From: Candidatus Omnitrophota bacterium | GTDB lineage: Bacteria > Omnitrophota > Gorgyraeia > Duberdicusellales > 4484-171 | NCBI GenBank assembly: GCA_037146775.1 | Contig: JBAWWL010000005.1 | Span: forward strand, 33,848-97,847 | DNA: 64,000 nt | Direction of reading: 5' to 3' | Notes under the pieces: generated by a model | Database searches by the model: none | What the model was told of the DNA's origin: nothing | What the model saw: only the letters and a program-made list of their open reading frames with translations | Program-made: the position numbers and the translations under genes | Shown here: positions 4,121 to 61,990 of the stretch, in pieces | Position numbering within the stretch: the stretch's first letter is position 1 | Layout: each line of letters starts with the position of its first letter

Positions 4121-5851
4121 ATGCTGAAAGAAAAATTTACCGATTATTTGCTTGAGAAAAAATTAATTTCCAAAGAAGACCTGGAAAAGGTCCTTACTCT
4201 TCAGAAAGAGAAGGGCGGTTCCCTGGTCGAACTTTTCATAAAGCTTGGGTGCATGCAAGAGGCTCAACTTCTTAATATTCTTTCCGGCTACCTCTCTATT
4301 CCGCCGATGCGGGTGATCAATCTGGCTATCGCCCAGGAGACTATCAGCTTAATTTCCGAACGTTTTGCCCGCAGTTTCCACGTTATCCCCATCGGTAAAA
4401 TCGGTAACAGCATTACTCTGGCTATGGCAGACCCCCTGAATGTGGTGGTTATCGACGACTTAAAGAAAATTACCGGTTGTGAGATTAACCCGGTGATTGC
4501 GCCTTTGTCGGAAATAAAAGAAGCCATTATTGCCCATTACACCCGGCCGCCCACAGACTCTATCGAAGAGATCATCAAGGGCCAAAAAGCGGAAGCAATC
4601 GAAATTATTAAGCAGGAAAAAGTATTGCAGAACCAAACCCTGGAAACCATTGACGAGGCGCCGGTAATGAAATTTACCAACTCGCTGCTTAAACGGGCTG
4701 TGTCTGACCGGGCATCGGACATCCTGTTAGAGCCTTTAGAGAAATCAAGCAGGGTAAGATTCCGTATCGACGGGCTTCTGCGGGAGGTAGAGACATTTTC
4801 CAAAAAAATCCACCCTTTTGTGATATCGCGCATCAAGGTTATGTGTAATCTTAATATCGCGGAGCACCGCTTGCCTCAAGAAGGAAGGTTCCGTAGCTCA
4901 ATTTTAGAGCGTAGCGTAGACTTCCGAGTTTCGATTGTGCCTTCCAGCTTAGGGGAGAAAGTTGCTATGCGTATTTTAGATAAAAATACCGCGCTTTTGG
5001 ATTTGGAGCTGTTGGGCTTTGAGGCTGACGTGCTCAAACAGATGAGAGCAGACAGTAAAAGGCCTCACGGTTTAATGTTGGTGTGCGGCCCGACCGGCTC
5101 AGGTAAAACCACCAGCCTTTACTCGGTTATTTCCTATATTTATAGTCCGGAGCGTAACATTATCACTGTAGAAGACCCTATAGAGTATCAGTTAAAAGGT
5201 ATTAACCAGGTAAGCATTAATCCCGCCATCAACCTGACTTTTGCTTCGTGCTTGCGCTCAATCTTGCGCCAGGATCCGGATATTATCATGGTGGGTGAAA
5301 TCAGGGATTTTGAAACCGCAGATATTACCATCAAGGCGGCTCTCACCGGCCATTTGGTTTTTTCAACCCTGCATACCACAACCAGCGCCGGCTCTGTTAC
5401 CCGTCTTATCAATATGGGCATTGAACCATTCCTGCTTTCTTCTACTTTAATAAGCGTTCTCTCTCAGCGTTTAGTGAGAAAGCTATGCCCCAAATGCAAA
5501 GAAGAGGCAGTGATCCTTGAAAGTATCCGGGAAAAATATGGTATCGATAAAAAAACGAAACTATACAAGGCAGTAGGCTGTAACTCCTGCCAGCAGACAG
5601 GATATAGAGGCCGTATTGCTTTAAGCGAGTATTTACCGATTTCGCCAAAGATACGGTTTTTAGTGAATGCGGCCACTTCGGAGCACGTGATAAAAAAAGA
5701 AGCCCGTATGTTGGGTATGCGTACGCTGCGTGAAGACGGCATCCTGAAGCTCAACACCGGCCTCACTACTTTAGAGGAAGTGCTTAAGGTAACGGGGGCG
5801 GACGAACCATTGGGGTCAGAAGTCAGAGGTCAGAAGACAGAAGACAGATGA
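4121..5851 (+). CDS. pilB: type IV pilus assembly ATPase PilB/GspE family (paralog 1)
   Basis: 576 aa. N-terminal T2SSE_N domain. Walker A GPTGSGKTT, Asp box, His box. C-terminal tetracysteine (CPKC...CNSC). C-terminal tail GSEVRGQKTEDR is encoded by the heptamer-repeat array. Confidence 0.85.
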   Translation: MLKEKFTDYLLEKKLISKEDLEKVLTLQKEKGGSLVELFIKLGCMQEAQLLNILSGYLSIPPMRVINLAIAQETISLISERFARSFHVIPIGKIGNSITLAMADPLNVVVIDDLKKITGCEINPVIAPLSEIKEAIIAHYTRPPTDSIEEIIKGQKAEAIEIIKQEKVLQNQTLETIDEAPVMKFTNSLLKRAVSDRASDILLEPLEKSSRVRFRIDGLLREVETFSKKIHPFVISRIKVMCNLNIAEHRLPQEGRFRSSILERSVDFRVSIVPSSLGEKVAMRILDKNTALLDLELLGFEADVLKQMRADSKRPHGLMLVCGPTGSGKTTSLYSVISYIYSPERNIITVEDPIEYQLKGINQVSINPAINLTFASCLRSILRQDPDIIMVGEIRDFETADITIKAALTGHLVFSTLHTTTSAGSVTRLINMGIEPFLLSSTLISVLSQRLVRKLCPKCKEEAVILESIREKYGIDKKTKLYKAVGCNSCQQTGYRGRIALSEYLPISPKIRFLVNAATSEHVIKKEARMLGMRTLREDGILKLNTGLTTLEEVLKVTGADEPLGSEVRGQKTEDR

Positions 5852-5890
5852 CAGAGGACAGAGGACGGAAAGCAGAAGACAGGGGACAGG
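5814..5890. repeat. tandem heptanucleotide repeat array (GWCAGAR, about 11 units), locus A
   Basis: gtcagaa gtcagag gtcagaa gacagaa gacagat gacagag ... read directly from the sequence. Overlaps the pilB1 3' end. Confidence 0.8.
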
Positions 5891-6256
5891 GTGAAAATTA
5901 AAAGTGTAAAAGATTTGAAAGTATATAATATTGCTTACAGTTTAGCAATGGAAATATTTACAACAACAAAGAGTTTTCCCAAAGAAGAAATTTATTCATT
6001 AACAGACCAGATTAGGCGTTCTTCCCGTTCGGTGGCGATTAACATAAGGGAGGGTTTTGCAAAACGAAGATACGAGCAAGTATTTACACGTCATTTAAAT
6101 GATGCTTTTGGTTCTAGTGAAGAAACGAGAGGTTGGCTGAATTTTGCTAAAGATTGTCAATATATATCGCAGAAAATATACGAAAAATTAGATAAGCAAT
6201 ACGATGAGTTAAACGCAATGATATACGTTCTTATGAATAGTTGGCACGCTTTCTAG
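5891..6256 (+). CDS. four-helix-bundle protein (23S rRNA intervening-sequence protein family, PF05635-like)
   Basis: 121 aa. Family-typical N-terminus (IKSVKDLKVYNIAYSLAMEIF) and SSRSVAINIREG motif. GTG start. Confidence 0.6.
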   Translation: MKIKSVKDLKVYNIAYSLAMEIFTTTKSFPKEEIYSLTDQIRRSSRSVAINIREGFAKRRYEQVFTRHLNDAFGSSEETRGWLNFAKDCQYISQKIYEKLDKQYDELNAMIYVLMNSWHAF

Positions 6257-8167: not shown

Positions 8168-9370
8168 ATGGCGAGTTTTTCTTATCATATCAAAAACAGG
8201 GAAGGCAAGGATGTCAAGGGTATTGCCGAAGCCGAGTCAAAAGAAAAACTAATAGAGTATTTTCAGAAGGAAGGTTTTGTCATTTTCGATATTTTCGAAA
8301 CCAAGCGGAAAACAAAAGTTTCCCGCTACGGAAAAATTTCCAGCGAAGACTTAGTGATTTTTTCCCGCCAACTTACCACCTTGATTGAAAGTAACATTTC
8401 CATCGTCGAAGCTTTAGAGATTCTTAAGTCCCAGGTGGAGAAGCCGTTTTTTAGAGAAGTATTAGGCATGGTGTTGAAAGATGTACGCGAAGGCTCTTCG
8501 CTTTCCAGCGCTTTTGCCAAGCACGCGCGGGTATTTCCGGAAATCTATATCAGCATGGTTGAAGCAGGTGAGGCCAGCGGAAATTTAGCATCCATTTTAG
8601 AGCGCGTGTCAGGGTATCTTGAGAAAAGCAGCGCTCTACGCAAAAAAGTAATTTCATCTTTATATTACCCCGTGATTATCGTTCTGATGGCAACTGCGAT
8701 TACCGGCTTCCTGCTTTTGAAGGTCATCCCGACTTTTAAGAGTGTTTTTGATTCGTTGGGAGGAAAGCTTCCTCTACCTACACAAATTTTAATATTAGTC
8801 TCCAACTTTTTACAGGCATATTTCGTTTATCTTGTTATCGGATTTGTTGCGGCTATTATTTTATTTTTGCGTTATATCAACACCAACAGAGGAAAACGGC
8901 AATACCACAAGTTACTTATCCGGCTGCCGATCGTAGGTGATTTAGTTAAAAAAATTGCCATTGCCCGTTTTTCCCGCACTTTTGCCACCTTAATCAAAAG
9001 CGGCGTATCGATTATCAAATGTTTGGACATTGTAGCTAATACTTCCGGCAACAAAATTATCGAGGACGCGGTGAAAAAATCAAAAAAACTTATCCAGGAA
9101 GGCCAAACCATTTCTACTCCCCTGGAAGAAAGTGGTATTTTTCCCCCTATGGTAGTTAAGATGGTGGCCATAGGCGAAAAAAGCGGTAAATTGGAGGAGA
9201 TGCTTTCCAAGATAGCGCAATTCTACGAAGAACAGACTGATGCCATGGTAGCCGGACTTTCCAGCCTGATTGAGCCGGTTATTATCGCCTTTTTAGGTGT
9301 GATTGTGGGTGGTATAGTTGTTTCTTTATTCCTACCGATTTTCCAGATTACTCAATATCTGAATAAATAA
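8168..9370 (+). CDS. pilC: type IV pilus inner-membrane platform protein PilC/GspF family
   Basis: 400 aa. Duplicated GspF domain. Three TM segments. Typical PilC N-terminal cytoplasmic domain. Confidence 0.85.
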   Translation: MASFSYHIKNREGKDVKGIAEAESKEKLIEYFQKEGFVIFDIFETKRKTKVSRYGKISSEDLVIFSRQLTTLIESNISIVEALEILKSQVEKPFFREVLGMVLKDVREGSSLSSAFAKHARVFPEIYISMVEAGEASGNLASILERVSGYLEKSSALRKKVISSLYYPVIIVLMATAITGFLLLKVIPTFKSVFDSLGGKLPLPTQILILVSNFLQAYFVYLVIGFVAAIILFLRYINTNRGKRQYHKLLIRLPIVGDLVKKIAIARFSRTFATLIKSGVSIIKCLDIVANTSGNKIIEDAVKKSKKLIQEGQTISTPLEESGIFPPMVVKMVAIGEKSGKLEEMLSKIAQFYEEQTDAMVAGLSSLIEPVIIAFLGVIVGGIVVSLFLPIFQITQYLNK

Positions 9371-10330: not shown

Positions 10331-10366
10331 AACCGCCTCTTTAAAAAAGAGGCGGTTTCTTATTTT
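10331..10366 (+). terminator. rho-independent terminator after pilA1
   Basis: aaccgcctcttt-aaaa-aaagaggcggtt stem-loop followed by tcttatttt. Confidence 0.8.
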
Positions 10367-20927: not shown

Positions 20928-22597
20928 GAATCCTGCTCATCGCCCCTCCTATCGAGGATTTTTACTTCACGCCTCAACGAGCATATCCGCTGGGAATATT
21001 ATATTTGGCCTCATCGTTAGCCGTCCGCGGGTTTACCGTTAAAGTTCTTAATGCTTTAGAAACTAACAAAAAAATAACGCTAAAAATACCCGATGATTTT
21101 ACCTATCTTAAGCGGTATTACCAGCCAAACAGGTCTCCTTTTTGTCTTTTTTCGAATTATTATCATTTTGGTTTGACCTATCCGGAAATCGAGGCGGTCG
21201 TCAGGCAGTTTCGGCCCGCTCTCGTGGGTATTTCTTCCAATTTCTCGCCTTATTTCGACACCAGCCGTCAAGTTGCCCGGATAGTAAAATATGTCGACGC
21301 CCGGATCCCGGTAGTGATGGGCGGAAGATTTCCCACCTCAAACCCCGAGCTTGTCTTGGGGGAAAAAAGTGTTGATTTTGTGATACGGGGGGAGGGAGAA
21401 GAAGCTTTTTGTGCACTCTGTTCGGCTGTTGCCGAAGGAAGAAGGATTTCTCGTATCAAAGGTTTATGCTATAAAGTAAACCAACGCCTCCACATCGCAT
21501 CCGCTCCCGTGTTGATTAAAAAACTTGATGCTTTACCGTTTCCTGATCGCCGTCTGATCGATTATCAGCGCTATGTTTTCGGCGGCACGGTCATGACTTC
21601 GCTTATTTCTTCCAGAGGTTGTGTGCTTGGTTGTAAGTTTTGTGCGATACAAGAGAAATTTCGTAGCCGCAGCGCGGACAATGTTTTTAAGGAGATAGTA
21701 TATTGTTATAGCTTAGGTATACGGCATTTTAATTTCGAGGATGACAATATCAACATTAACCCTCATTTTGGCAAGGTTTTAGACCACCTCATTGATAACT
21801 TTGCGGGGAAAATAACAGTGTCGTTTATGAACGGTTTATTGGCTCAAGGGCTGCACGCTGGCTTACGGAAGAAATTGCTTGCAGCCGGCCTTACCCATAT
21901 TGATTTGTCGCTGGTTACCAGCAACAGGAAAGTCCGGCTAAAAACCGAAAGGCCGTCCTGGCAGAAAAGCATTTTTGATCTTTCTAGTTTTATGGCCCGG
22001 CGCGGCATTGCGCCAACAGTTCATTTCATTATTGCTTTGCCTGGCCAGAGGTTTATCCAGGCACTGGCAGACGTGAAGTTGCTGGCAAAAAAAACAGTTA
22101 AGCTTGGCCCAAGCATATTTTATCCGGTTATCGAGAGCGGTTTTTTCCAAGAGCTAAAGGAAAGATTTGGTTTTAGCGCGCAGGGCTATAGGCTTTTTCG
22201 TTCTAGTTGCGCTTGTTTTGACCGGTACATGTCTCGCGATGAAATATTTACCATTTTCTATCTTTCCCGTGTGGTGAATTTTGTCAAAGATTTGATCGAT
22301 AACGGTGTTATTCAAGAAGACACCCTGTCTTCATTTTTGCTTACAGTCCCAGAAAAAACCAATAGTACCAATGACAATCTTGTTACTGTGCAAAGAATCG
22401 AGAGAGAGCGTTTGGGTGTAATTCTTTTAAAAAAGCTGATTGAAGAAAAGAGTGTTTATCGGGTAGAAGAAAAACAAAAAAACGGGCAATTTTATTACGC
22501 TTTTTTCCGGGATGATTTTATTTCCGCCCACCATATCCGGTTGGCGCTTGAAGGCCTTTCTGTACGGGGTTTATCCGGCAGGGCTATAAAAATATAA
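20924..22597 (+). CDS. B12-binding-domain radical SAM protein of unknown function
   Basis: 557 aa. N-terminal Rossmann-like B12-binding region (MRILLIAPP). SSRGCVLGCKFC CxxxCxxC. Confidence 0.7.
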   Translation: MRILLIAPPIEDFYFTPQRAYPLGILYLASSLAVRGFTVKVLNALETNKKITLKIPDDFTYLKRYYQPNRSPFCLFSNYYHFGLTYPEIEAVVRQFRPALVGISSNFSPYFDTSRQVARIVKYVDARIPVVMGGRFPTSNPELVLGEKSVDFVIRGEGEEAFCALCSAVAEGRRISRIKGLCYKVNQRLHIASAPVLIKKLDALPFPDRRLIDYQRYVFGGTVMTSLISSRGCVLGCKFCAIQEKFRSRSADNVFKEIVYCYSLGIRHFNFEDDNININPHFGKVLDHLIDNFAGKITVSFMNGLLAQGLHAGLRKKLLAAGLTHIDLSLVTSNRKVRLKTERPSWQKSIFDLSSFMARRGIAPTVHFIIALPGQRFIQALADVKLLAKKTVKLGPSIFYPVIESGFFQELKERFGFSAQGYRLFRSSCACFDRYMSRDEIFTIFYLSRVVNFVKDLIDNGVIQEDTLSSFLLTVPEKTNSTNDNLVTVQRIERERLGVILLKKLIEEKSVYRVEEKQKNGQFYYAFFRDDFISAHHIRLALEGLSVRGLSGRAIKI

Positions 22598-22628
22598 AAG
22601 GGGCATAGTATATATGCCCCTTTTATAT
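22596..22628. terminator. bidirectional rho-independent terminator between convergent genes
   Basis: aaaa-ggggcata-gta-tatgcccc-tttt: perfect 8-bp stem flanked by A-run and T-run. Confidence 0.8.
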
Positions 22629-22643
22629 TTGTTTTCAATTCAA

Positions 22644-38320: not shown

Positions 38321-39331
38321 ATGAAAGCGTTAGCATTATTTTCCGGCGGATTGGACAGCACTCTCGCCGTAAAAGTAATTTTAAACCAAGGGGTGGAGGT
38401 GATCGCCTTACATTTTTTAACGCCCCTTTCCTGTACAGACGCAGTCCATCAAGAAGCTCTCAGGAAAAAAGTTCAGGAACAATTAGAGGTCGAGCTTAAA
38501 ATAATTAAACTTGCCGATGATTATCTGGAAATCCTCAAACATCCCGTGTTTGGTTACGGCAGAAATCTAAATCCCTGCATAGACTGTAAAATTTTAATGC
38601 TCAAACACGCAAAAGCGTTGTTGTCTGAAACAGGCGCTTCTTTTGTTGTTACCGGAGAAGTGCTTGGCCAGCGGCCAAAATCTCAACATAAAGATGCTCT
38701 TGGCTCGATAGAAAAGTGCTCGGGGCTGGAAGGGCTTCTGCTCAGGCCTTTGTCGGCAAAACTTCTGCCTCTTACTGTTGTGGAGGAGAAAGGTTGGATA
38801 AAAAGAGAGGATCTTTATGGTTTTCAAGGACGCAACCGTACCCCCCAGATTAACTTAGCGAAGCAGTTGGGGATTCAAGATTATGCTCAGCCGGCGGGAG
38901 GGTGTCTTTTGACCAACCCTTCATTTTGTCCCCGGGTAAAAGACTTTCTGGAAAAAGACGGAATAGATTTACATAGCTTGGAGCTCTTGAAATGGGGTAA
39001 GCATTTTCGTATAACTCCAACTTTTAAACTGGTGGTGGGCAGGGATGAAGCAGAGAACAAGCTGCTTATGGAACACATACAGAAAGGCGATATCATTTTT
39101 GAGCCGCAAGAATTACCCGGCCCCACCGCTATCGGCAGGGGAATCATCAACGACGAGATAAAAACTCTATGTAGCTGTATTGTCGCGCGTCACACTGTTT
39201 CCGATGGCCGGCAGGTAAAGATAACAATTACGGCGGATGATGGTGTGCGGCAGGTTGTCTTGGCGTCGGGCATTGACGAGATAAGACTAAAAGAGTTACT
39301 CATACAGCAAGAAGGGTATAATAGCCGATGA
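38321..39331 (+). CDS. PP-loop ATPase of the MnmA/ThiI-like tRNA sulfurtransferase superfamily
   Basis: LFSGGLDS PP-loop. NPCIDCKILMLK aligns to MnmA NPDILCNKEIKF (catalytic Cys). GGCLLTN second Cys block. Confidence 0.5.
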   Translation: MKALALFSGGLDSTLAVKVILNQGVEVIALHFLTPLSCTDAVHQEALRKKVQEQLEVELKIIKLADDYLEILKHPVFGYGRNLNPCIDCKILMLKHAKALLSETGASFVVTGEVLGQRPKSQHKDALGSIEKCSGLEGLLLRPLSAKLLPLTVVEEKGWIKREDLYGFQGRNRTPQINLAKQLGIQDYAQPAGGCLLTNPSFCPRVKDFLEKDGIDLHSLELLKWGKHFRITPTFKLVVGRDEAENKLLMEHIQKGDIIFEPQELPGPTAIGRGIINDEIKTLCSCIVARHTVSDGRQVKITITADDGVRQVVLASGIDEIRLKELLIQQEGYNSR

Positions 39332-41061
39332 AATTATTCTTTTTTGTAGTCTTCTTGCTTTTCCCGCTGCTCTGTGTGGCGCAAAGTATAACCTTAGAAC
39401 CAATTACTATAACCACGCAAAATTACGAAGATTCCACGCAAAGCGTAGATGAATTTTCACTTCCGGACATAGAAAACCTTCCCGCATCGTCACCGGAAGA
39501 GCTTCTGGATTATTCTTCCGATGTTAACTTAATAAAACGTGCGCCTTTTGGGCTACAACAGGATGTTTCGATTCGCGGTTCTATCTTTGAGGATGCTTCC
39601 GTGAGCTTGGCCGGCGTTAAGATCAATGATCCGCAGACCGGACATTTTAGCTTAGAAATACCTTTAACCAGCGCGGACTTGAATAAGGTGGCGATCTATA
39701 AGAATTCACAAAAGATAGAATTCACGCCTAAAAAACCAACAGATAAAGGTTTTCTTCTTAAAACTTCTTTTGGCCAGCACGCGCTTTGGGAGAATCTCGC
39801 CTCTGTAAATTTTCCTCTGGCAGGGACAAAAAACAGATTGTCCATAGAACATAAGGTTGCCAAGGGCGGCCGCCGTGACACCGACTTTGATATATATAAT
39901 TTTTCCTATCATTCTTTTTGGCAAGGAGAAGGAAGTGACGCGGAGTTTTTGTTTGGTTTAACCAAAAAGGATTTTGGCGCGGACAGTTTTTATTCTTCGA
40001 GTTTCACTCAAGAAGAGGAACATACCAACCAGAGGTTTTTATTGGCGCGCTTAGGGATAGAGGCAAATTCTTTTAAGCTCAATAACACGGTATATTGGCG
40101 CAGGCACCGCGATAAATTTATTTTAAACCGCGCCAACCCTTCTTTCTATACCAATTTTCACACTACTAACGTATATGGTTTAAAGCAGGAATTTAATTTT
40201 TATAATGATTTATTCGCCGCCTTGAATGTAGAGCAGGAAAAAATAGACAGCACTAATTTGAGCAAACATTATCGCCTGCGAAAGGGCTTAGGTTTGGGTT
40301 TAAAGGACAAACAGTTTGGTAAGTTCCTGCTGGGATTTTCCGGCGGCACCGATTATTACGATAAATGGCGTTACTTAGAGAACGCGCATCTGGGATTAGG
40401 ATATTTACTTAAAGATGAGCTAAAGTTACGTTTTTCTTTTGACCGTATCTGGCGCGTGCCGTCTTTTACGGAATTGTATTATTCTGATCCGGCAAATATA
40501 GGCAATGCCAATCTGGGTGTGCAAAAATCAAACAATTTTGAGGCTGGTTTTGACTATGCGCCTTTTGACTTTTTAAGTACCGCTTACGGATTTTTTTTTC
40601 GAGACCAATCCCACACTATCGATTGGGTAAAGAATAATTCCGCCGATGCCTGGCAGGCGCAGAATGTAGGCAATGTCGGCGCATATGGTTTTGACTTTAG
40701 CTCAAAAGTTAAATTTAAAAATCTTGTTTTAGAGGACGTCTCTTTTAATTATACCTATCTCAATCTCAATAAGAGCAGTCCATATAGTTATTCCAAATAT
40801 GTTTTTGATTATGATAAGCATAAGGTAGTTACCAACCTCGGTTTTAATTACAAAGGGGTCAAAGCCAACGTAATCAGCAATTTTTCAAAACCGGTAGACA
40901 GGGAAAAATACGTTACCTTTGATTTAAGGATAGAAAAACAAATCCGCAACCTTACCCTTGCCTTAGAAGGCACTAATATTTTTAACGCAAATTACGAAGA
41001 AATGAAAGATATTGACGCTACCGGCAGATGGTATAAGCTAAGTTTAGCCTACGCTTTCTAA
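39328..41061 (+). CDS. TonB-dependent-receptor-like outer-membrane beta-barrel protein
   Basis: Signal peptide. Plug-like N-terminal region (IRGS...AGVKINDPQTGH). Alternating beta pattern. C-terminal LSLAYAF with terminal Phe. Confidence 0.6.
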   Translation: MKLFFFVVFLLFPLLCVAQSITLEPITITTQNYEDSTQSVDEFSLPDIENLPASSPEELLDYSSDVNLIKRAPFGLQQDVSIRGSIFEDASVSLAGVKINDPQTGHFSLEIPLTSADLNKVAIYKNSQKIEFTPKKPTDKGFLLKTSFGQHALWENLASVNFPLAGTKNRLSIEHKVAKGGRRDTDFDIYNFSYHSFWQGEGSDAEFLFGLTKKDFGADSFYSSSFTQEEEHTNQRFLLARLGIEANSFKLNNTVYWRRHRDKFILNRANPSFYTNFHTTNVYGLKQEFNFYNDLFAALNVEQEKIDSTNLSKHYRLRKGLGLGLKDKQFGKFLLGFSGGTDYYDKWRYLENAHLGLGYLLKDELKLRFSFDRIWRVPSFTELYYSDPANIGNANLGVQKSNNFEAGFDYAPFDFLSTAYGFFFRDQSHTIDWVKNNSADAWQAQNVGNVGAYGFDFSSKVKFKNLVLEDVSFNYTYLNLNKSSPYSYSKYVFDYDKHKVVTNLGFNYKGVKANVISNFSKPVDREKYVTFDLRIEKQIRNLTLALEGTNIFNANYEEMKDIDATGRWYKLSLAYAF

Positions 41062-41085: not shown

Positions 41086-41607
41086 TTGAGTGATATTGTA
41101 TATTCACAGATTCCTACCGACAACTTTTCTACCGTTAAACTGCCCGATGATTTTTATTTTTGGCTGTGGCGTCCGGCGCTTCTTAAAATAATCCCGCCAG
41201 GATTAAGTTCTAGAAGAATACTCCATTGGTTATGCCATTGGCTACATTTATTTTATAATAAAGATTATGCGGTGTTATATATCGTAAAAAATAATAAAAT
41301 TTTACATCGCTCATGCATAATTCCTTCTTCGATACGCTGCCTGTTTATGGATAAAAAAGACATTTGTGTTTCTATGGTCTGGACAGATCCGAAATACCGC
41401 CGGCAGGGTTTAGCAACATCAGCATTAAGGCAGGTAATGTTTTTGATGAAAAAGCCGGGAAGAGTGTTTTGGTACATTACTCAAGACAGTAACCATGCTT
41501 CTAGTTGGGCCTGCCTAAAAGCTGGATTTAAGCCTGTAGGCAAAGCAAAACGGGTGCGCATTAAGGGTTATTTCTTTGAGCAGTTAACCTTAGAGATATT
41601 TAAGTAA
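41086..41607 (+). CDS. GNAT-family N-acetyltransferase
   Basis: Motif A RRQGLATSAL. No in-frame ATG in the first 88 codons, so TTG start assumed. Confidence 0.45.
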   Translation: MSDIVYSQIPTDNFSTVKLPDDFYFWLWRPALLKIIPPGLSSRRILHWLCHWLHLFYNKDYAVLYIVKNNKILHRSCIIPSSIRCLFMDKKDICVSMVWTDPKYRRQGLATSALRQVMFLMKKPGRVFWYITQDSNHASSWACLKAGFKPVGKAKRVRIKGYFFEQLTLEIFK

Positions 41608-41639
41608 TATGCAGCTTACTTAAGGAATGTAATATTAAT

Positions 41640-41930
41640 TTGATTTATGCATTCACGGCGCTTCCCGATGATGTCGGGATTTCGCTTATTAGCGTATTAA
41701 GGTGCTCAAAAAACCGTGGTATTCACCCCGAGAAATTCCAAAGGAATTTCCGGGACTAAAGTCCTCGTAATCCTTCGGATTGCAGAGGGTACCGCGTGCG
41801 TCTGCCGGCAAGGCAGGGATTATGTGATGCGCCGTTCAGTATTAGCCCAGCAGGCGCCCGTAGGGCAGCCTGCTGGGTAGCCATACTGAAACCTTGGGCT
41901 TTCGCCCGAGGAGCTATGGAAGGCTTCATT
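41640..41930 (+). ncRNA. candidate structured non-coding RNA of unknown class
   Basis: GC-elevated, ORF-poor segment. At least 7 local hairpins, several capped by UUCG/GNRA-type loops. Confidence 0.3.
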
Positions 41931-42107
41931 TACCACTATTTTATAACAACTACAGATATTTTTAGTTTTTATACCGGTATTATCCATGCTCCCTACGTTT
42001 TTATTTTTTCATTGACATCTTTGGCTTAAGGTATACAATATTCCAATTTTTTCATTACACCGCGAAAAGTCTTGTTGTAGAGATTTTTTCATATATACCG
42101 TAATAAA

Positions 42108-43949
42108 ATGTTAAATTTATTCAATATCAGTATATCTTTTTTGCATGACCCACTTTCCTTATTTTTCGTATTTACTATCCTGCTCATCTCTCTGCCTTCG
42201 GTAATTTATTCCCTTGGGTATCTCAAGGGTGAATACTCTTTGAAGAAAAGGTTCTACGGCTTGACGCTTTTTACCATTTTTGTCATTTCGATGTGTTTAG
42301 TGGTAACCGTAGATAACGCGCTTATGTTCCTTATTTGCTGGGAGCTGATGTCGTTGGTTTCTTATTTCCTGGTTATCTTCGACCATGAGAACGAAAAATC
42401 TATACGTGCCGGAACGATTTATGTGGTGATGATGCATATCGGAACCGCCTTTATTGCCGCCGCTTTCCTTATTATGTATAAACATGCCGGCTCTTTTGAT
42501 TTCGCGGCCCTTAAGGCGGCTTGTCAAAGTATGCCTATTGCTACCAAAAACTTACTTTTTGTATTTTTCCTTCTTGGTTTCGGCACTAAAGCCGGGATTG
42601 TGCCTTTGCATATATGGCTTCCTTTGGCACATCCTCAGGCACCCAGTCATATTTCAAGTCTGATGTCGGGAGTGATGATTAAAACCGCTATTTACGGAAT
42701 AATCAGGTTTATTATTTTTGTTCTCGGGGTTAGCTCTTTGTGGTGGGGGAATTTAGTTTTAATCCTGGCCGCGTTTTCCTGCCTTATCGGAGTTATCTAC
42801 GCGCTGATGGAGCACGACATAAAAAAGCTTCTGGCTTATCATAGCGTAGAAAATATCGGAATAATTCTTTTAGGCGTGGGCGCTTGTATGGTATTTTTAC
42901 AATGCAATCTGCCCTATATGGCGGTGTTTTCTCTGGCCGCCGGCTTGTATCATTTGATTAATCACGCTATCTTTAAGAGCCTTCTGTTTCTCTGTGCAGG
43001 AAGCGTATATAAAGTAACCGGAACGCGTGACATGGAAAAGCTCGGAGGCCTCATTAAAAAAATGCCTTGGACTGCCGCCGCCTTTCTTATGGGAGCAATG
43101 GCAATCTCGGCATTACCTCCTCTAAACGGTTTTGTGAGCGAGTGGTTGATCCTGCAGACGTTTTTTTTAGGTATGTTAAAGGTCTCGGGCGGCCTTAAAG
43201 TCTTTTTCGCACTTTGTGCTGCCGCTTTAGCTTTGACCGGAGGCCTGGCGGCTGCCTGCTTCGTAAAAGCTTTCGGTATTACTTTCCTGGCGATGCCAAG
43301 AAGCAGTAAAGCGAAAGAGGCGAAAGAGGTGGTTTTTTCCATGAAGGCGGGTATGGTTTTTTTAAGCGCACTGACGCTTATTTTTGGCCTAGCTGCAGGG
43401 GTAATATTCAAGGTATTGGCGGCAATCGCTCAGAGTATAGTAGCTGCGGACGCTCCTGCGATGAATTTTAGTTTGAACAATTTTACGCTCGCAACCGTCT
43501 CGGACAACCCAACCTATCTTTCTCCTCTGGCGGTTGCTTTGGTGCTTGTCGCGGTGATGGCGGTAACGGCAATTCTGGTTTTTGTAGTGGCAGGCAAGGC
43601 GAGAGTGAAGAAATACGGCACCTGGGATTGCGGGTATTATAAGTTGACCGGCCGCAATGAATATACCTCAACGGCATTTTCCAAGCCTTTCAGGATAGCG
43701 TTTAGTTTCTTTCTGCGGCCTTACAGAAAAACAGAAAAAATTAGAGAATCTTTTTACCACGTCAAAGCTTTCAAGTACGAAACATTTACTACGCCGGTTT
43801 TTAAAAAGTATATATACGCGCCGATTTTGGCTATCACGTTCGGTTCAGCCCGCCTTATGCGCCGGATTCAGCCCGGAAGCATACACTTATATATTGCGTA
43901 TATTTTTGTAACCATAGTCACTTTAATTATTTTTATGAAGATATTTTAA
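42108..43949 (+). CDS. NuoL/HyfB/MnhA-like antiporter-type membrane subunit of an Ehr-type complex
   Basis: 613 aa. About 16 TM helices. PF00361 proton-pumping-subunit pattern (WLPLAHPQAPSHISSLM). Confidence 0.8.
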   Translation: MLNLFNISISFLHDPLSLFFVFTILLISLPSVIYSLGYLKGEYSLKKRFYGLTLFTIFVISMCLVVTVDNALMFLICWELMSLVSYFLVIFDHENEKSIRAGTIYVVMMHIGTAFIAAAFLIMYKHAGSFDFAALKAACQSMPIATKNLLFVFFLLGFGTKAGIVPLHIWLPLAHPQAPSHISSLMSGVMIKTAIYGIIRFIIFVLGVSSLWWGNLVLILAAFSCLIGVIYALMEHDIKKLLAYHSVENIGIILLGVGACMVFLQCNLPYMAVFSLAAGLYHLINHAIFKSLLFLCAGSVYKVTGTRDMEKLGGLIKKMPWTAAAFLMGAMAISALPPLNGFVSEWLILQTFFLGMLKVSGGLKVFFALCAAALALTGGLAAACFVKAFGITFLAMPRSSKAKEAKEVVFSMKAGMVFLSALTLIFGLAAGVIFKVLAAIAQSIVAADAPAMNFSLNNFTLATVSDNPTYLSPLAVALVLVAVMAVTAILVFVVAGKARVKKYGTWDCGYYKLTGRNEYTSTAFSKPFRIAFSFFLRPYRKTEKIRESFYHVKAFKYETFTTPVFKKYIYAPILAITFGSARLMRRIQPGSIHLYIAYIFVTIVTLIIFMKIF

Positions 43950-55295: not shown

Positions 55296-55404
55296 AAATA
55301 AGGAAAAGATAGGCCAGGCAAGCATTTTTGTATCCTTGTAAAAGCAGCGCAAATATGTTATATACAAGGTGTAAAGTGTAAAAGTGACAATTTGGTATTT
55401 ACCC

Positions 55405-55490
55405 AGTGAAAAGGCAAACCAAGAGTAATCTTGGGACGCAAAGCTAAAGGTCCCGCGAGTAGCGGGAAGCCTGGCTGCCAAAGGGGAGGA
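55405..55490 (+). promoter_or_regulatory. c-di-GMP-I (GEMM) riboswitch aptamer
   Basis: GGCAAACC + 12-nt GNRA hairpin (aagaGUAAucuu) + GGGACGCAAAGC in the same order and spacing as the Vc2 aptamer. Followed by a P2-like hairpin cccgc-gagua-gcggg. Confidence 0.75.
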
Positions 55491-55491
55491 A

Positions 55492-55520
55492 AAACCTTGA
55501 GTCCGCCTCAAGGTTTTTTT
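55492..55520 (+). terminator. intrinsic terminator (riboswitch expression platform)
   Basis: aaccttgag-tccgc-ctcaaggtt followed by T7. Confidence 0.8.
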
Positions 55521-55530
55521 ATGTATAGAC

Positions 55531-55560
55531 AACCCTAAGCTTTGCTTAGGGTTTTTTTTT
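55531..55560 (+). terminator. second intrinsic terminator in tandem
   Basis: ccctaagc-tttg-gcttaggg followed by T9. Confidence 0.8.
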
Positions 55561-55587: not shown

Positions 55588-55857
55588 ATGTATAGAGGTA
55601 ATGATATTCCTAGTAGATTGAGGCATCGCGTGATTACCATGCTAAACCGTGAAGAGCTGGATTTCTTGGATAAGTTGGGCAAAGACGCGCTTTTTACTAC
55701 CGGGCACAAGCTTTCTTACAATGAGATCTTAGTCGGCCTGGTTGAATTTGTCAAAGAAATCGGCCTTTCCGGAGAACGCATTGATTCGTACAATGCGCTT
55801 AAAGCAAGGATAGTTCAGCGGGTGCGCACTGTTGCGGGGAAAAACGAACATGAATAG
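55588..55857 (+). CDS. small protein with ribbon-helix-helix-like N-terminal pattern
   Basis: 89 aa. GGAGGGAGG SD. HRVITMLNREELDFLDKLGKD fits the beta-strand/helix-A pattern of CopG/RHH proteins (inference). Confidence 0.35.
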   Translation: MYRGNDIPSRLRHRVITMLNREELDFLDKLGKDALFTTGHKLSYNEILVGLVEFVKEIGLSGERIDSYNALKARIVQRVRTVAGKNEHE

Positions 55858-55894
55858 TATTGTGATATTGAATATGAACAAGAGGAGGTGCCCC

Positions 55895-56371
55895 ATGAAA
55901 AGGACAATCGTTTTCATCGCGTTAGAGCTTGTTTTGTTGTTGGTGGCAGTCAGTCTTTATGCGCAGGCTCCCGGTAAGGTCGATCCGCTTTTGTCGACGA
56001 TGCCCTCGCGAGAAGCGGGCGTGCAGCAGCCATCGATACGGATTGATGAGGAGAATATGAAGTTGATTAACAAAAATACCACTGCGTATACAGAGCCAGC
56101 AAATAAAATGGGCACCGGCATAGTCAATGTAGCTACCGGCTGGGCGGACGTGCCTAAGAAAATTTCCGACAGGTCTGCAGAACAAAATCCTTTGGCCGGG
56201 CTCACAATTGGTTTCGGAGAAGGAGTCGTAACCGGAGTGGCGCGTACTACTGCGGGCGCGCTTGACGTGGCTATGTTTAGTATACCCCCGTATGATGCGC
56301 CATTAATGGAGAGCGAATATAAAGTTAGCAATCCCAACGAGGGATTTAAGATAGATCTTTTAAGTTGGTAA
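55895..56371 (+). CDS. secreted hypothetical protein
   Basis: GAGGAGG SD. Signal peptide MKRTIVFIALELVLLLVAVSLYAQA. Gly/Thr-rich mature region. Confidence 0.4.
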   Translation: MKRTIVFIALELVLLLVAVSLYAQAPGKVDPLLSTMPSREAGVQQPSIRIDEENMKLINKNTTAYTEPANKMGTGIVNVATGWADVPKKISDRSAEQNPLAGLTIGFGEGVVTGVARTTAGALDVAMFSIPPYDAPLMESEYKVSNPNEGFKIDLLSW

Positions 56372-56380
56372 AGATATGAA

Positions 56381-56412
56381 TGGGGCTGTGATGCGACAGC
56401 CCCATTTTCTTT
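56381..56412 (+). terminator. rho-independent terminator
   Basis: tggggctgt-gatgcg-acagcccca followed by ttttctttg. Confidence 0.75.
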
Positions 56413-61954: not shown

Positions 61955-61990
61955 GGCTGGGCAATAAAATTATTGCCCAGCCCCGTCTTT
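61955..61990 (+). terminator. hairpin (possible weak terminator) after porin gene
   Basis: ggctgggcaata-aaat-tattgcccagcc followed by ccgtcttt (interrupted T-run). Confidence 0.35.

Follow-up and report, generated by a model that had tools for sequence, protein, structure and literature searches.

Searches of AT-rich genomes by the G+C content and the length of their spacers have yielded large orphan RNAs such as raiA, ROOL, GOLLD, OLE and HEARO. We analyzed a comparable element of about 235-270 nt, located on the + strand of a 64-kb stretch of DNA (the window hereafter) from a Candidatus Omnitrophota metagenome-assembled genome, between the open reading frame (ORF) of a GNAT acetyltransferase and the promoter of an Ehr/Mrp-like operon. 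As with RNAs of the raiA, ROOL, GOLLD, OLE and HEARO type, this element lies in a long spacer, displays a sharp G+C peak (0.65 versus 0.42), lacks an ORF and is predicted to form many stable helices with an extreme folding z-score. On the other hand, such classes are defined by many covarying homologues, whereas the element has none and matches none of their Rfam models. Altogether, the structural anomaly is real and striking; the link with the Ehr operon proposed in an earlier note on this DNA does not hold, and the element is an orphan candidate.

The + strand of 41630-41940 has a predicted minimum free energy (MFE) of -134.3 kcal/mol (z -7.66), none of 100 shuffled sequences being as good, and the - strand reaches -120.3 kcal/mol (z -5.94). 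The two halves of the element are separately significant, with z -5.3 for 41655-41835 and z -8.2 for 41836-41925, and the rest of the spacer (41930-42107, 178 nt) is unstructured (z +0.15). After regression of the MFE on G+C over 300-nt windows, no other segment of the 64 kb deviates as much as the element on either strand (residual z -5.2 and -4.0); it is also more extreme than all of the ~2,600 windows taken from 26 related Omnitrophota loci, the best of which reaches -4.87. The G+C of this segment is also raised (0.555 in 41700-41899 versus 0.42 over the window as a whole). With a G+C of 0.65 in its best 100 nt, the spacer ranks first among the 26 intergenic regions, the next one (0.56) being found at a c-di-GMP-I riboswitch. 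Moreover, the + strand, on which both flanking genes are also encoded, is more stable than the - strand by 14-16 kcal/mol, with a better z-score and a much better-defined ensemble, and its fold contains ten G-U pairs versus seven on the - strand, as well as a cUUCGg loop. The predicted structure is exceptional and strand-biased, and the element is probably an RNA made from the + strand.

The seven stem-loops listed in the earlier note are all present in the sequence where it had placed them, and its view that the region holds no credible ORF also stands, since all three + frames have stops or yield low-complexity Ala/Arg/Gly-rich peptides. Two - strand ORFs of 55 and 57 aa were picked by gene callers, and they only matched themselves among 5.8 and 1.8 billion proteins. 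The mention of several UUCG/GNRA-type loops on the + strand was overstated: a single cUUCGg loop is found on this strand, and the only GNRA loop (GAAA) belongs to the - strand, where it derives from the UUUC loop.

The local hairpins H2-H8 (Table 1) are the robust features of the predicted fold, with a pairing probability above 0.95 for most of them. Their stems are essentially free of mismatches and the hairpins are dissimilar to one another. The long-range closure of the structure is less well defined. The MFE fold closes the 5' domain with a helix of 7 bp, and an alternative closing helix, GUGGUA (41716-21) with UACCAC (41931-36), would delimit a body of ~235 nt (41704-41945). Forcing this alternative yields -133.9 instead of -134.3 kcal/mol, a cost of 0.4 kcal/mol, and it becomes the MFE closure when 41704-41945 is folded alone (z -7.3). 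In 300 nt, chance alone should produce perfect long-range helices of 6-7 bp, and neither closure is therefore to be trusted unless covariation supports it.

The earlier note had suggested that the element could be a cis-regulatory leader of the Ehr operon. This proposal is contradicted by the position of the element, upstream of a conserved promoter. Orthologous loci were fetched via Ehr subunit 1, by nine exact-protein look-ups and one genome scan, giving 93 loci, and the clade of the window comprises 15 of them (L002-L008, L038, L095-L099), with 72-81% identity in this subunit. The subunit of the window itself is 100% identical to an NCBI protein of a Candidatus Omnitrophota metagenome-assembled genome, and the sequence also occurs on a Logan contig of run SRR12676968. 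At least 18 loci, belonging to Omnitrophota and to allied metagenome-assembled genomes, have a perfect TTGACA-N15-18-TAHAAT upstream of the first Ehr gene. The nhmmer alignment of the window to the clade loci covers only ~42000-42094, that is the promoter and the short 5' untranslated region (5'UTR), and apart from the promoter 42012-42039 and the ~70-nt 5'UTR, nothing in the spacer is conserved among related Ehr loci. The element itself was not found by nhmmer in any of the 93 loci, the 15 of the clade included, and a leader conserved with its operon is thereby contradicted as well. Nor does the segment carry an expression platform, for which one would expect a terminator 3' of it or a structure sequestering the start site: neither is seen, and 41930-42107 is unstructured.

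The region that separates the TonB-receptor gene from the Ehr promoter is a variable slot. It is empty in L006 and L007, where the promoter directly follows in a 217-nt spacer, it contains a helix-turn-helix (HTH)-cupin gene and an unrelated small two-hairpin element in L002 and L038, and it holds the GNAT gene and the structured element in the window. For now, our analysis is useful chiefly as a correction. In this clade, a conserved promoter followed by a short leader drives the Ehr operon, and the structured segment is a cargo of the variable slot that is specific to one lineage. The clade-wide promoter and 5'UTR read CCTTGACAT..AAGGTATACAATATTyCAATTTTTTCATTGGACCGCAAAAAGCC, followed by a small hairpin. 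The two-hairpin element of the two closest relatives of the window lies upstream of the Ehr promoter, at ~5780-5840 in L038 and ~2135-2200 in L002, and shows one compensatory change between them (GAATTAGC-GCAA-GCTAATTC versus GATTAAC-GCAA-GTTAATC).

A second role in Ehr regulation could still be imagined, in which transcripts coming from upstream would read through the AT-rich spacer and be regulated by the structure, acting as a distal Ehr leader. We regard this as highly doubtful. No intrinsic terminator separates the element from the Ehr genes, which would allow read-through; part of the Ehr -10 region is duplicated just 5' of the element, and long Ehr leaders do exist 3' of the promoters in other Omnitrophota clades, one of them with a helix that pairs with the start codon region. 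However, the conserved strong promoter stands between the element and the Ehr genes, every relative lacks the element, ~180 nt of unstructured AT-rich sequence separate it from the start codon, and it has neither an expression platform nor any similarity to the leaders of the other clades. A distal leader, if real, would be a lineage-specific oddity placed before a conserved strong promoter.

The comparison with these leaders (L015, L016, L020, L033 and L067), and with riboswitch or attenuator leaders generally, is limited to the presence of a structured coding-strand segment upstream of the same operon. The element differs from them in being upstream of the promoter rather than between promoter and start codon, in lacking a terminator or a helix sequestering the start codon, and in showing no similarity to them in sequence or model. 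In a second Omnitrophota clade, a conserved Ehr leader is found at 605-735 in L015, 5856-5990 in L020, 5871-6005 in L016 and 5912-6005 in L033. In this leader, GGCGTAGCTAAGATAGAGAGAC ... GCCCTCCTATCCCGTAGCAAAACC, the motif UAUCCCG pairs with the start-codon-containing AUGGGAUA, a pairing backed by one compensatory change from C-G to A-U, and no Rfam family is matched. It looks like a candidate translational riboswitch or attenuator of the Ehr operon. In L067, 535 nt (5466-6001) extend from a consensus promoter to the start of the Ehr-subunit match and contain several hairpins, among which a clean intrinsic terminator, AGCCTTTTGG...GCTAAAAGGCTTTTTTATTTT, at ~5648-5720; this stretch suggests an attenuator-type leader in that lineage.

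Table 1. Position of the element, of its predicted parts and of the neighboring features. Positions are those of the window unless a locus is named.
Feature	Position	Strand	Remarks
ThiI-like gene	38321-39331	+	
TonB-dependent receptor gene	39328-41061	+	
GNAT acetyltransferase ORF	41086-41607	+	173 aa, TTG start; directly 5' of the element
Spacer holding the element	41608-42107		500 nt
Partial copy of the Ehr -10 and initial transcribed region, CTTAAGGAATGTAATATT..AATTT..CATTCACGGCG	41619..41660	+	compared with 42025-42064; no matching -35
5' domain	41655..41835	+	predicted multi-loop with H2-H6; z -5.3; helix probabilities 0.81-1.0 save two short 3-bp helices
MFE closing helix of the 5' domain, ACGGCGC/GCGCCGU	41655-61 / 41829-35	+	7 bp; provisional
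H2	41663-41679	+	
H2 with U-rich tail, UCCCGAUGAUGUCGGGA UUUCGCUUAU	41663..41689	+	sole intrinsic-terminator-like site of the spacer
CCCGA-UGAUG-UCGGG	41664-41678	+	hairpin of the earlier note
H3	41683-41694	+	
Long A-rich junction, UAUUAAGGUGCUCAAAAAACCGUGGUAUUCAC	41695..41726	+	32 nt; mostly unpaired in the MFE fold; two marginal 3-bp helices only
H4	41727-41754	+	
GAAAUUCC-AAA-GGAAUUUC	41732-41750	+	hairpin of the earlier note, lengthened by CCCG/CGGG
GGAC-UAAA-GUCC	41753-41764	+	hairpin of the earlier note; competes with adjoining helices; not in the MFE fold
Junction ACUAAAGUCCUCG	41755..41767	+	
H5	41762-41789	+	
AAUCC-UUCG-GGAUU	41769-41782	+	hairpin of the earlier note
H6	41793-41826	+	
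CUGCC-GGCAA-GGCAG	41802-41816	+	hairpin of the earlier note
3' domain	41836..41925	+	-55.3 kcal/mol; z -8.2; MFE structure makes up 45% of the ensemble
H7	41836-41889	+	long hairpin: 7 bp, internal loop, 11 bp, 4 bp with GUA loop
CCCAGCAGG...CCUGCUGGG	41846-41854 / 41869-41877	+	hairpin of the earlier note
H8, CCUUGGGC-UUUC-GCCCGAGG	41892-41911	+	
GGGC-UUUC-GCCC	41896-41907	+	hairpin of the earlier note
Weak 4-bp hairpin	41912-41925	+	3' of H8
Terminal helix, RNase P-like mapping	41716-21 / 41931-36	+	
P3-like hairpin, RNase P-like mapping	41727-54	+	
CR-I-like stretch, RNase P-like mapping, ACUAAAGUCCUCG	41755..41767	+	
P4-like helix, RNase P-like mapping, AAG(U)CCU / AGGCUU	41759-65 / 41921-26	+	bulged U; encloses four hairpins
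Ehr promoter TTGACA-16-TACAAT	42012-42039	+	11/12 of the sigma-70 consensus; 69 nt 5' of the ATG; marks the downstream boundary of the element
Short Ehr 5'UTR with small hairpin	ends 42107	+	~70 nt, up to the ATG at 42108
Conserved Ehr promoter and 5'UTR	window 42012-42107; L002 2256-2352; L003 2822-3000; L004 2298-2393; L006 2799-3000; L038 5903-6000; L095-L099		
Ehr/Mrp-like operon	from 42108	+	Ehr subunit 1 at 42108-43949, ATG at 42108

As an explanation of the element, we tentatively favor a lineage-specific, autonomously folding structured RNA of the + strand, which would be co-transcribed with the GNAT gene or made just after it, and whose stable 3' structure would insulate the Ehr promoter without being a sensor for Ehr. 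The element would have arrived, or arisen, with the orphan GNAT gene in the variable slot 5' of the conserved Ehr promoter, and would be transcribed as a 3' extension of the GNAT transcript, the source of transcription being either the promoter-like site at 41232-41259, read-through from upstream, or the weak -10-like copy at 41630. Co-transcriptional folding could then give six or seven very stable local hairpins around a multi-helix junction. Such a compact fold might persist as a nuclease-resistant 3'UTR or as a 3'-derived stable RNA, and could buffer the strong Ehr promoter downstream against transcription and decay coming from upstream, with no ligand sensing on behalf of Ehr. The analysis shows the statistics and strand bias of the predicted fold, its place upstream of the conserved promoter, its absence from the relatives and the lack of a match to known families, whereas the transcription of the element, its 5' and 3' ends and its stability or insulating role are what we infer. 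Besides the fold, the strand bias, the conserved promoter downstream and the changing content of the slot, we count in favor of this explanation that no sigma-70-like promoter of at least 9/12 is found between the GNAT stop codon and the element, and that no intrinsic terminator follows it before the Ehr genes.

Several points nevertheless weigh against such a role. No homologue that would reveal covariation or selection on the fold came out of the searches made. The hairpin H2 with its U-rich tail (41663-41689), which is possibly the terminator of the GNAT gene, could end the GNAT transcript before most of the element. A stabilizing or insulating role is generic, with nothing sequence-specific behind it, and a structure of 270 nt and seven hairpins far exceeds what it would need, as the ordinary genes of the window use single-hairpin terminators. 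Lastly, as the GNAT ORF lacks homologues and only 77 aa of it are called, it may itself be a fragment in decay, in which case the whole insert of ~950 nt could be junk.

One terminator-like site was found in the spacer versus 1.5 expected, which is not significant alone. The hairpins H4-H8 have no U tract, and only H2 qualifies, weakly, as an intrinsic terminator. Ordinary terminators in this genome consist of single perfect hairpins of 10-18 bp with A-/T-rich flanks, directly after stop codons (22590-22630, an 18-bp palindrome, 10331-10357, 56379-56406 and 61955-61982), which provides a baseline for the multi-hairpin element; the latter is therefore not simply a terminator. The copy of the Ehr -10 region is a hint that the structured segment could have a weak promoter, or a -10 element, of its own. 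Of 1000 shuffled sequences, 1 aligned as well as this copy (score 26), but so did 3 of the 1471 natural segments compared from the rest of the window, and the evidence for a promoter at 41619-41660 is weak for this reason.

The GNAT ORF matches Pfam Acetyltransf_1 (9e-7), and searches with ncbifam, PADLOC and PHROGs describe it as nothing more than a generic acetyltransferase. No homologue was found among 5.8 billion proteins. Gene callers take only its C-terminal 77 aa (41374-41607), and this exact 77-aa product occurs in no contig other than that of the window. The gene may be decaying or very fast-evolving. A promoter-like site, ATGCCA-16-TATAAT, lies at 41232-41259, inside the long version of the ORF.

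Relatives of the element were looked for in several ways, the scans of genome, metagenome and viral collections being limited ones. The earlier note had recognized none of the RNA signatures checked by eye, and this was borne out with Rfam 15, the only match at gathering thresholds in the whole window being the c-di-GMP-I riboswitch at 55403-55482. At E<=10, the 651 and 251 nt around the element gave only chance-level matches to snoRNA and miRNA models, of 12-18 bits. With nhmmer and two covariance models, the element was absent from the 15 clade loci and from 60 bacterial sources. The covariance models, each built on one sequence (41727-41826 or 41836-41925), were run on 612 kb of related DNA and retrieved only the element itself, the best foreign E-values being 0.064 and 1.6. 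Against phage and plasmid collections, blastn gave nothing but one chance match of 48 nt in a phage polymerase gene. An exact 19-mer of the element is absent from the JGI metagenomes, and among three 17-18-mers searched in viral contigs two had no match and the third had five, in three unrelated contexts, as expected from chance. The spurious ORFs of the element, used as proxies in protein databases, only retrieved themselves, and its frame-0 translation, used as a degenerate pattern against viral, genome and metagenome contigs, gave no confirmed match among the matches listed (598-600 raw), a weak negative. A second copy is lacking both from the 64-kb window and from all the loci fetched, and no homology was detected to the spacer element of L002 and L038, to a repeat of L013 or to other 5'UTR insertions. 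The element is an orphan, lineage-specific structured element.

A few candidates suggested by the eye were also discarded. The hairpin H7 has the stem/spacer/stem/bulge shape of an integron attC site, but no GTTRRRY/RYYYAAC cores could be recognized by eye. Resemblances to SRP and 6S RNAs, K-turns and C/D boxes stopped at the level of words and were rejected on the Rfam result, and a 20-nt likeness to the L013 core was unsupported by nhmmer at E<=100.

It is possible, from the fold predictions, that the element is a small or structured RNA. One may wonder whether it is the stand-alone gene of a large structured non-coding RNA (ncRNA) of a new class, trans-acting or catalytic, from a poorly sampled Omnitrophota lineage, with a body of ~235 nt held by a terminal 5'/3' helix. 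We consider this rather unlikely, even though its predicted fold is statistically as extreme as that of large ncRNAs already known. A multi-helix junction, a mostly unpaired A-rich junction of 32 nt and a possible terminal stem GUGGUA/UACCAC are typical of stable RNAs, which are classically searched for by a high G+C within an AT-rich spacer, and no Rfam 15 family was matched. However, no homologue was found anywhere searched, the syntenic site of the closest relatives lacks the element, no promoter or terminator of its own can be recognized, and long-range helices of 6-7 bp such as the terminal one are expected by chance in 300 nt. The genes lying up to 20 kb on either side are housekeeping genes, and no reverse transcriptase, nuclease, transposase, Ro-type or other partner of an RNA system was found within this distance. 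The literature did not bring any paper joining Omnitrophica with RNase P, or Omnitrophota with structured RNA. More specifically, it is improbable, on the predicted architecture, that the element would be the first seen member of such a class, possibly catalytic, with an RNase P-like core made of a helix, a hairpin, a junction and a helix, and without sequenced relatives in the scanned collections.

This last resemblance led us to weigh a drastically reduced RNase P-like RNA, an explanation to which we give almost no credit. The stretch AAG(U)CCU (41759-65) can pair with AGGCUU (41921-26), U41762 being bulged, with a duplex energy of -5.9 kcal/mol. Together with the alternative terminal helix, the hairpin that follows it and the A-rich AAAGUCC junction, this long-range helix with a bulged U would reproduce the order of P1-P4 in bacterial RNase P RNA, and the size of the element is near that of the smallest known RNase P RNAs. 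The likeness of ACUAAAGUCCUCG and of AAG(U)CCU/AGGCUU to the RNase P core consensus (CR-I, and P4 with its bulged U) was drawn by eye, and so was the match in the order of the elements. The 3' context AUGGAAGGCUUCA also resembles ACAGAA..GGCUUA. Strongly reduced RNase P RNAs, such as the type T RNA of Pyrobaculum, can escape covariance models. On the other hand, no Rfam RNase P model gave a match at E<=10 on 251-651 nt, none of them reaching even the ~12-18 bits of the chance matches. No convincing equivalent of CR-II to CR-V, and no junction J5/15 or L15 GGU, could be recognized by eye. The P4-like pairing competes with the very stable H5, and chance could produce a 7-mer with a 6-bp complement when so many patterns are examined. 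Finally, the element is absent from close relatives, unlike an essential RNA.

The variability of the slot also raises the question of a non-functional relic of foreign or mobile DNA, such as the decayed end of a mobile element or a unit of a genome-specific palindromic repeat, brought in with the GNAT fragment, the hairpins then reflecting its origin. This too is unlikely in our opinion. The slot behaves as a hot spot whose cargo changes from one relative to the next, the GNAT ORF lacks homologues and is called only in part, and sporadic GC-rich hairpin insertions occur at various intergenic sites in other Omnitrophota. One of these, in L013, has a second copy 6 kb away, with 89% identity over 85 nt, which shows that the phylum does contain repeat families of similar appearance. 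Like the REP/BIME, BOX, ERIC and MITE repeats, the element is hairpin-dense, GC-elevated and ORF-free, lies between co-directional genes and is sporadically present among close relatives. It differs from them in that it is single-copy in the 64 kb and in all fetched loci, and in that it has no terminal inverted repeats or target-site duplication, only short repeats of chance level being found. Its hairpins are mutually dissimilar, and the element is therefore not a REP-type palindromic repeat cluster. The strong + strand bias carried by strand-specific G-U pairs is unexpected for DNA-level palindromes, and the near absence of mismatches in the stems argues against a long neutral decay.

Should the element prove to be a functional RNA, it would add an uncharacterised large structured RNA to a candidate phylum in which non-coding RNAs are almost unexplored, and would also show that scans combining G+C and fold energy can pick such RNAs from single metagenome-assembled genomes. 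For covariation analysis, the uncharacterised Ehr leaders and the repeated structured element of other Omnitrophota are better targets than the orphan element, because they have homologues.

Several relatives have GC-rich hairpin insertions, specific to their lineages, in the Ehr 5'UTR. Those of L003 (2863-2935) and of L098 and L099 share the ends ATCCGCCTTCGC...GCTTCGGCGGA, the one of L006 (2869-2985) contains repeated CCACGG/CCGTGG hairpins, and L096 (~575-660) carries another insertion. The structured element of L013 is present in two inverted copies, at 8860-9139 (+), between Ehr genes 2 and 3, and at 2650-2385 (-), ahead of a - strand gene. Both copies share a core of ~95 nt with ~89% identity, GGTTCACCGCCTyCCT..TATATCAAGGAAGCGkGATCCCGCCGAGTGAArCGCAGGCGGGAArTTCGrCTACCGCCTC, followed by variable hairpins and by the shared 3' motif CGGCGAAGyCTCATTA. 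This element has no Rfam match and is the strongest folding outlier among the relatives.

Elsewhere in the window, ARAGORN detected no tRNA or tmRNA gene in the 64 kb. The c-di-GMP-I riboswitch, the sole Rfam match (RF01051, 63.7 bits, E 4e-10), is encoded on the + strand upstream of an ORF without Pfam match (55832-56371), and two strong hairpins (55490-55518 and 55531-55553) lie 3' of it.

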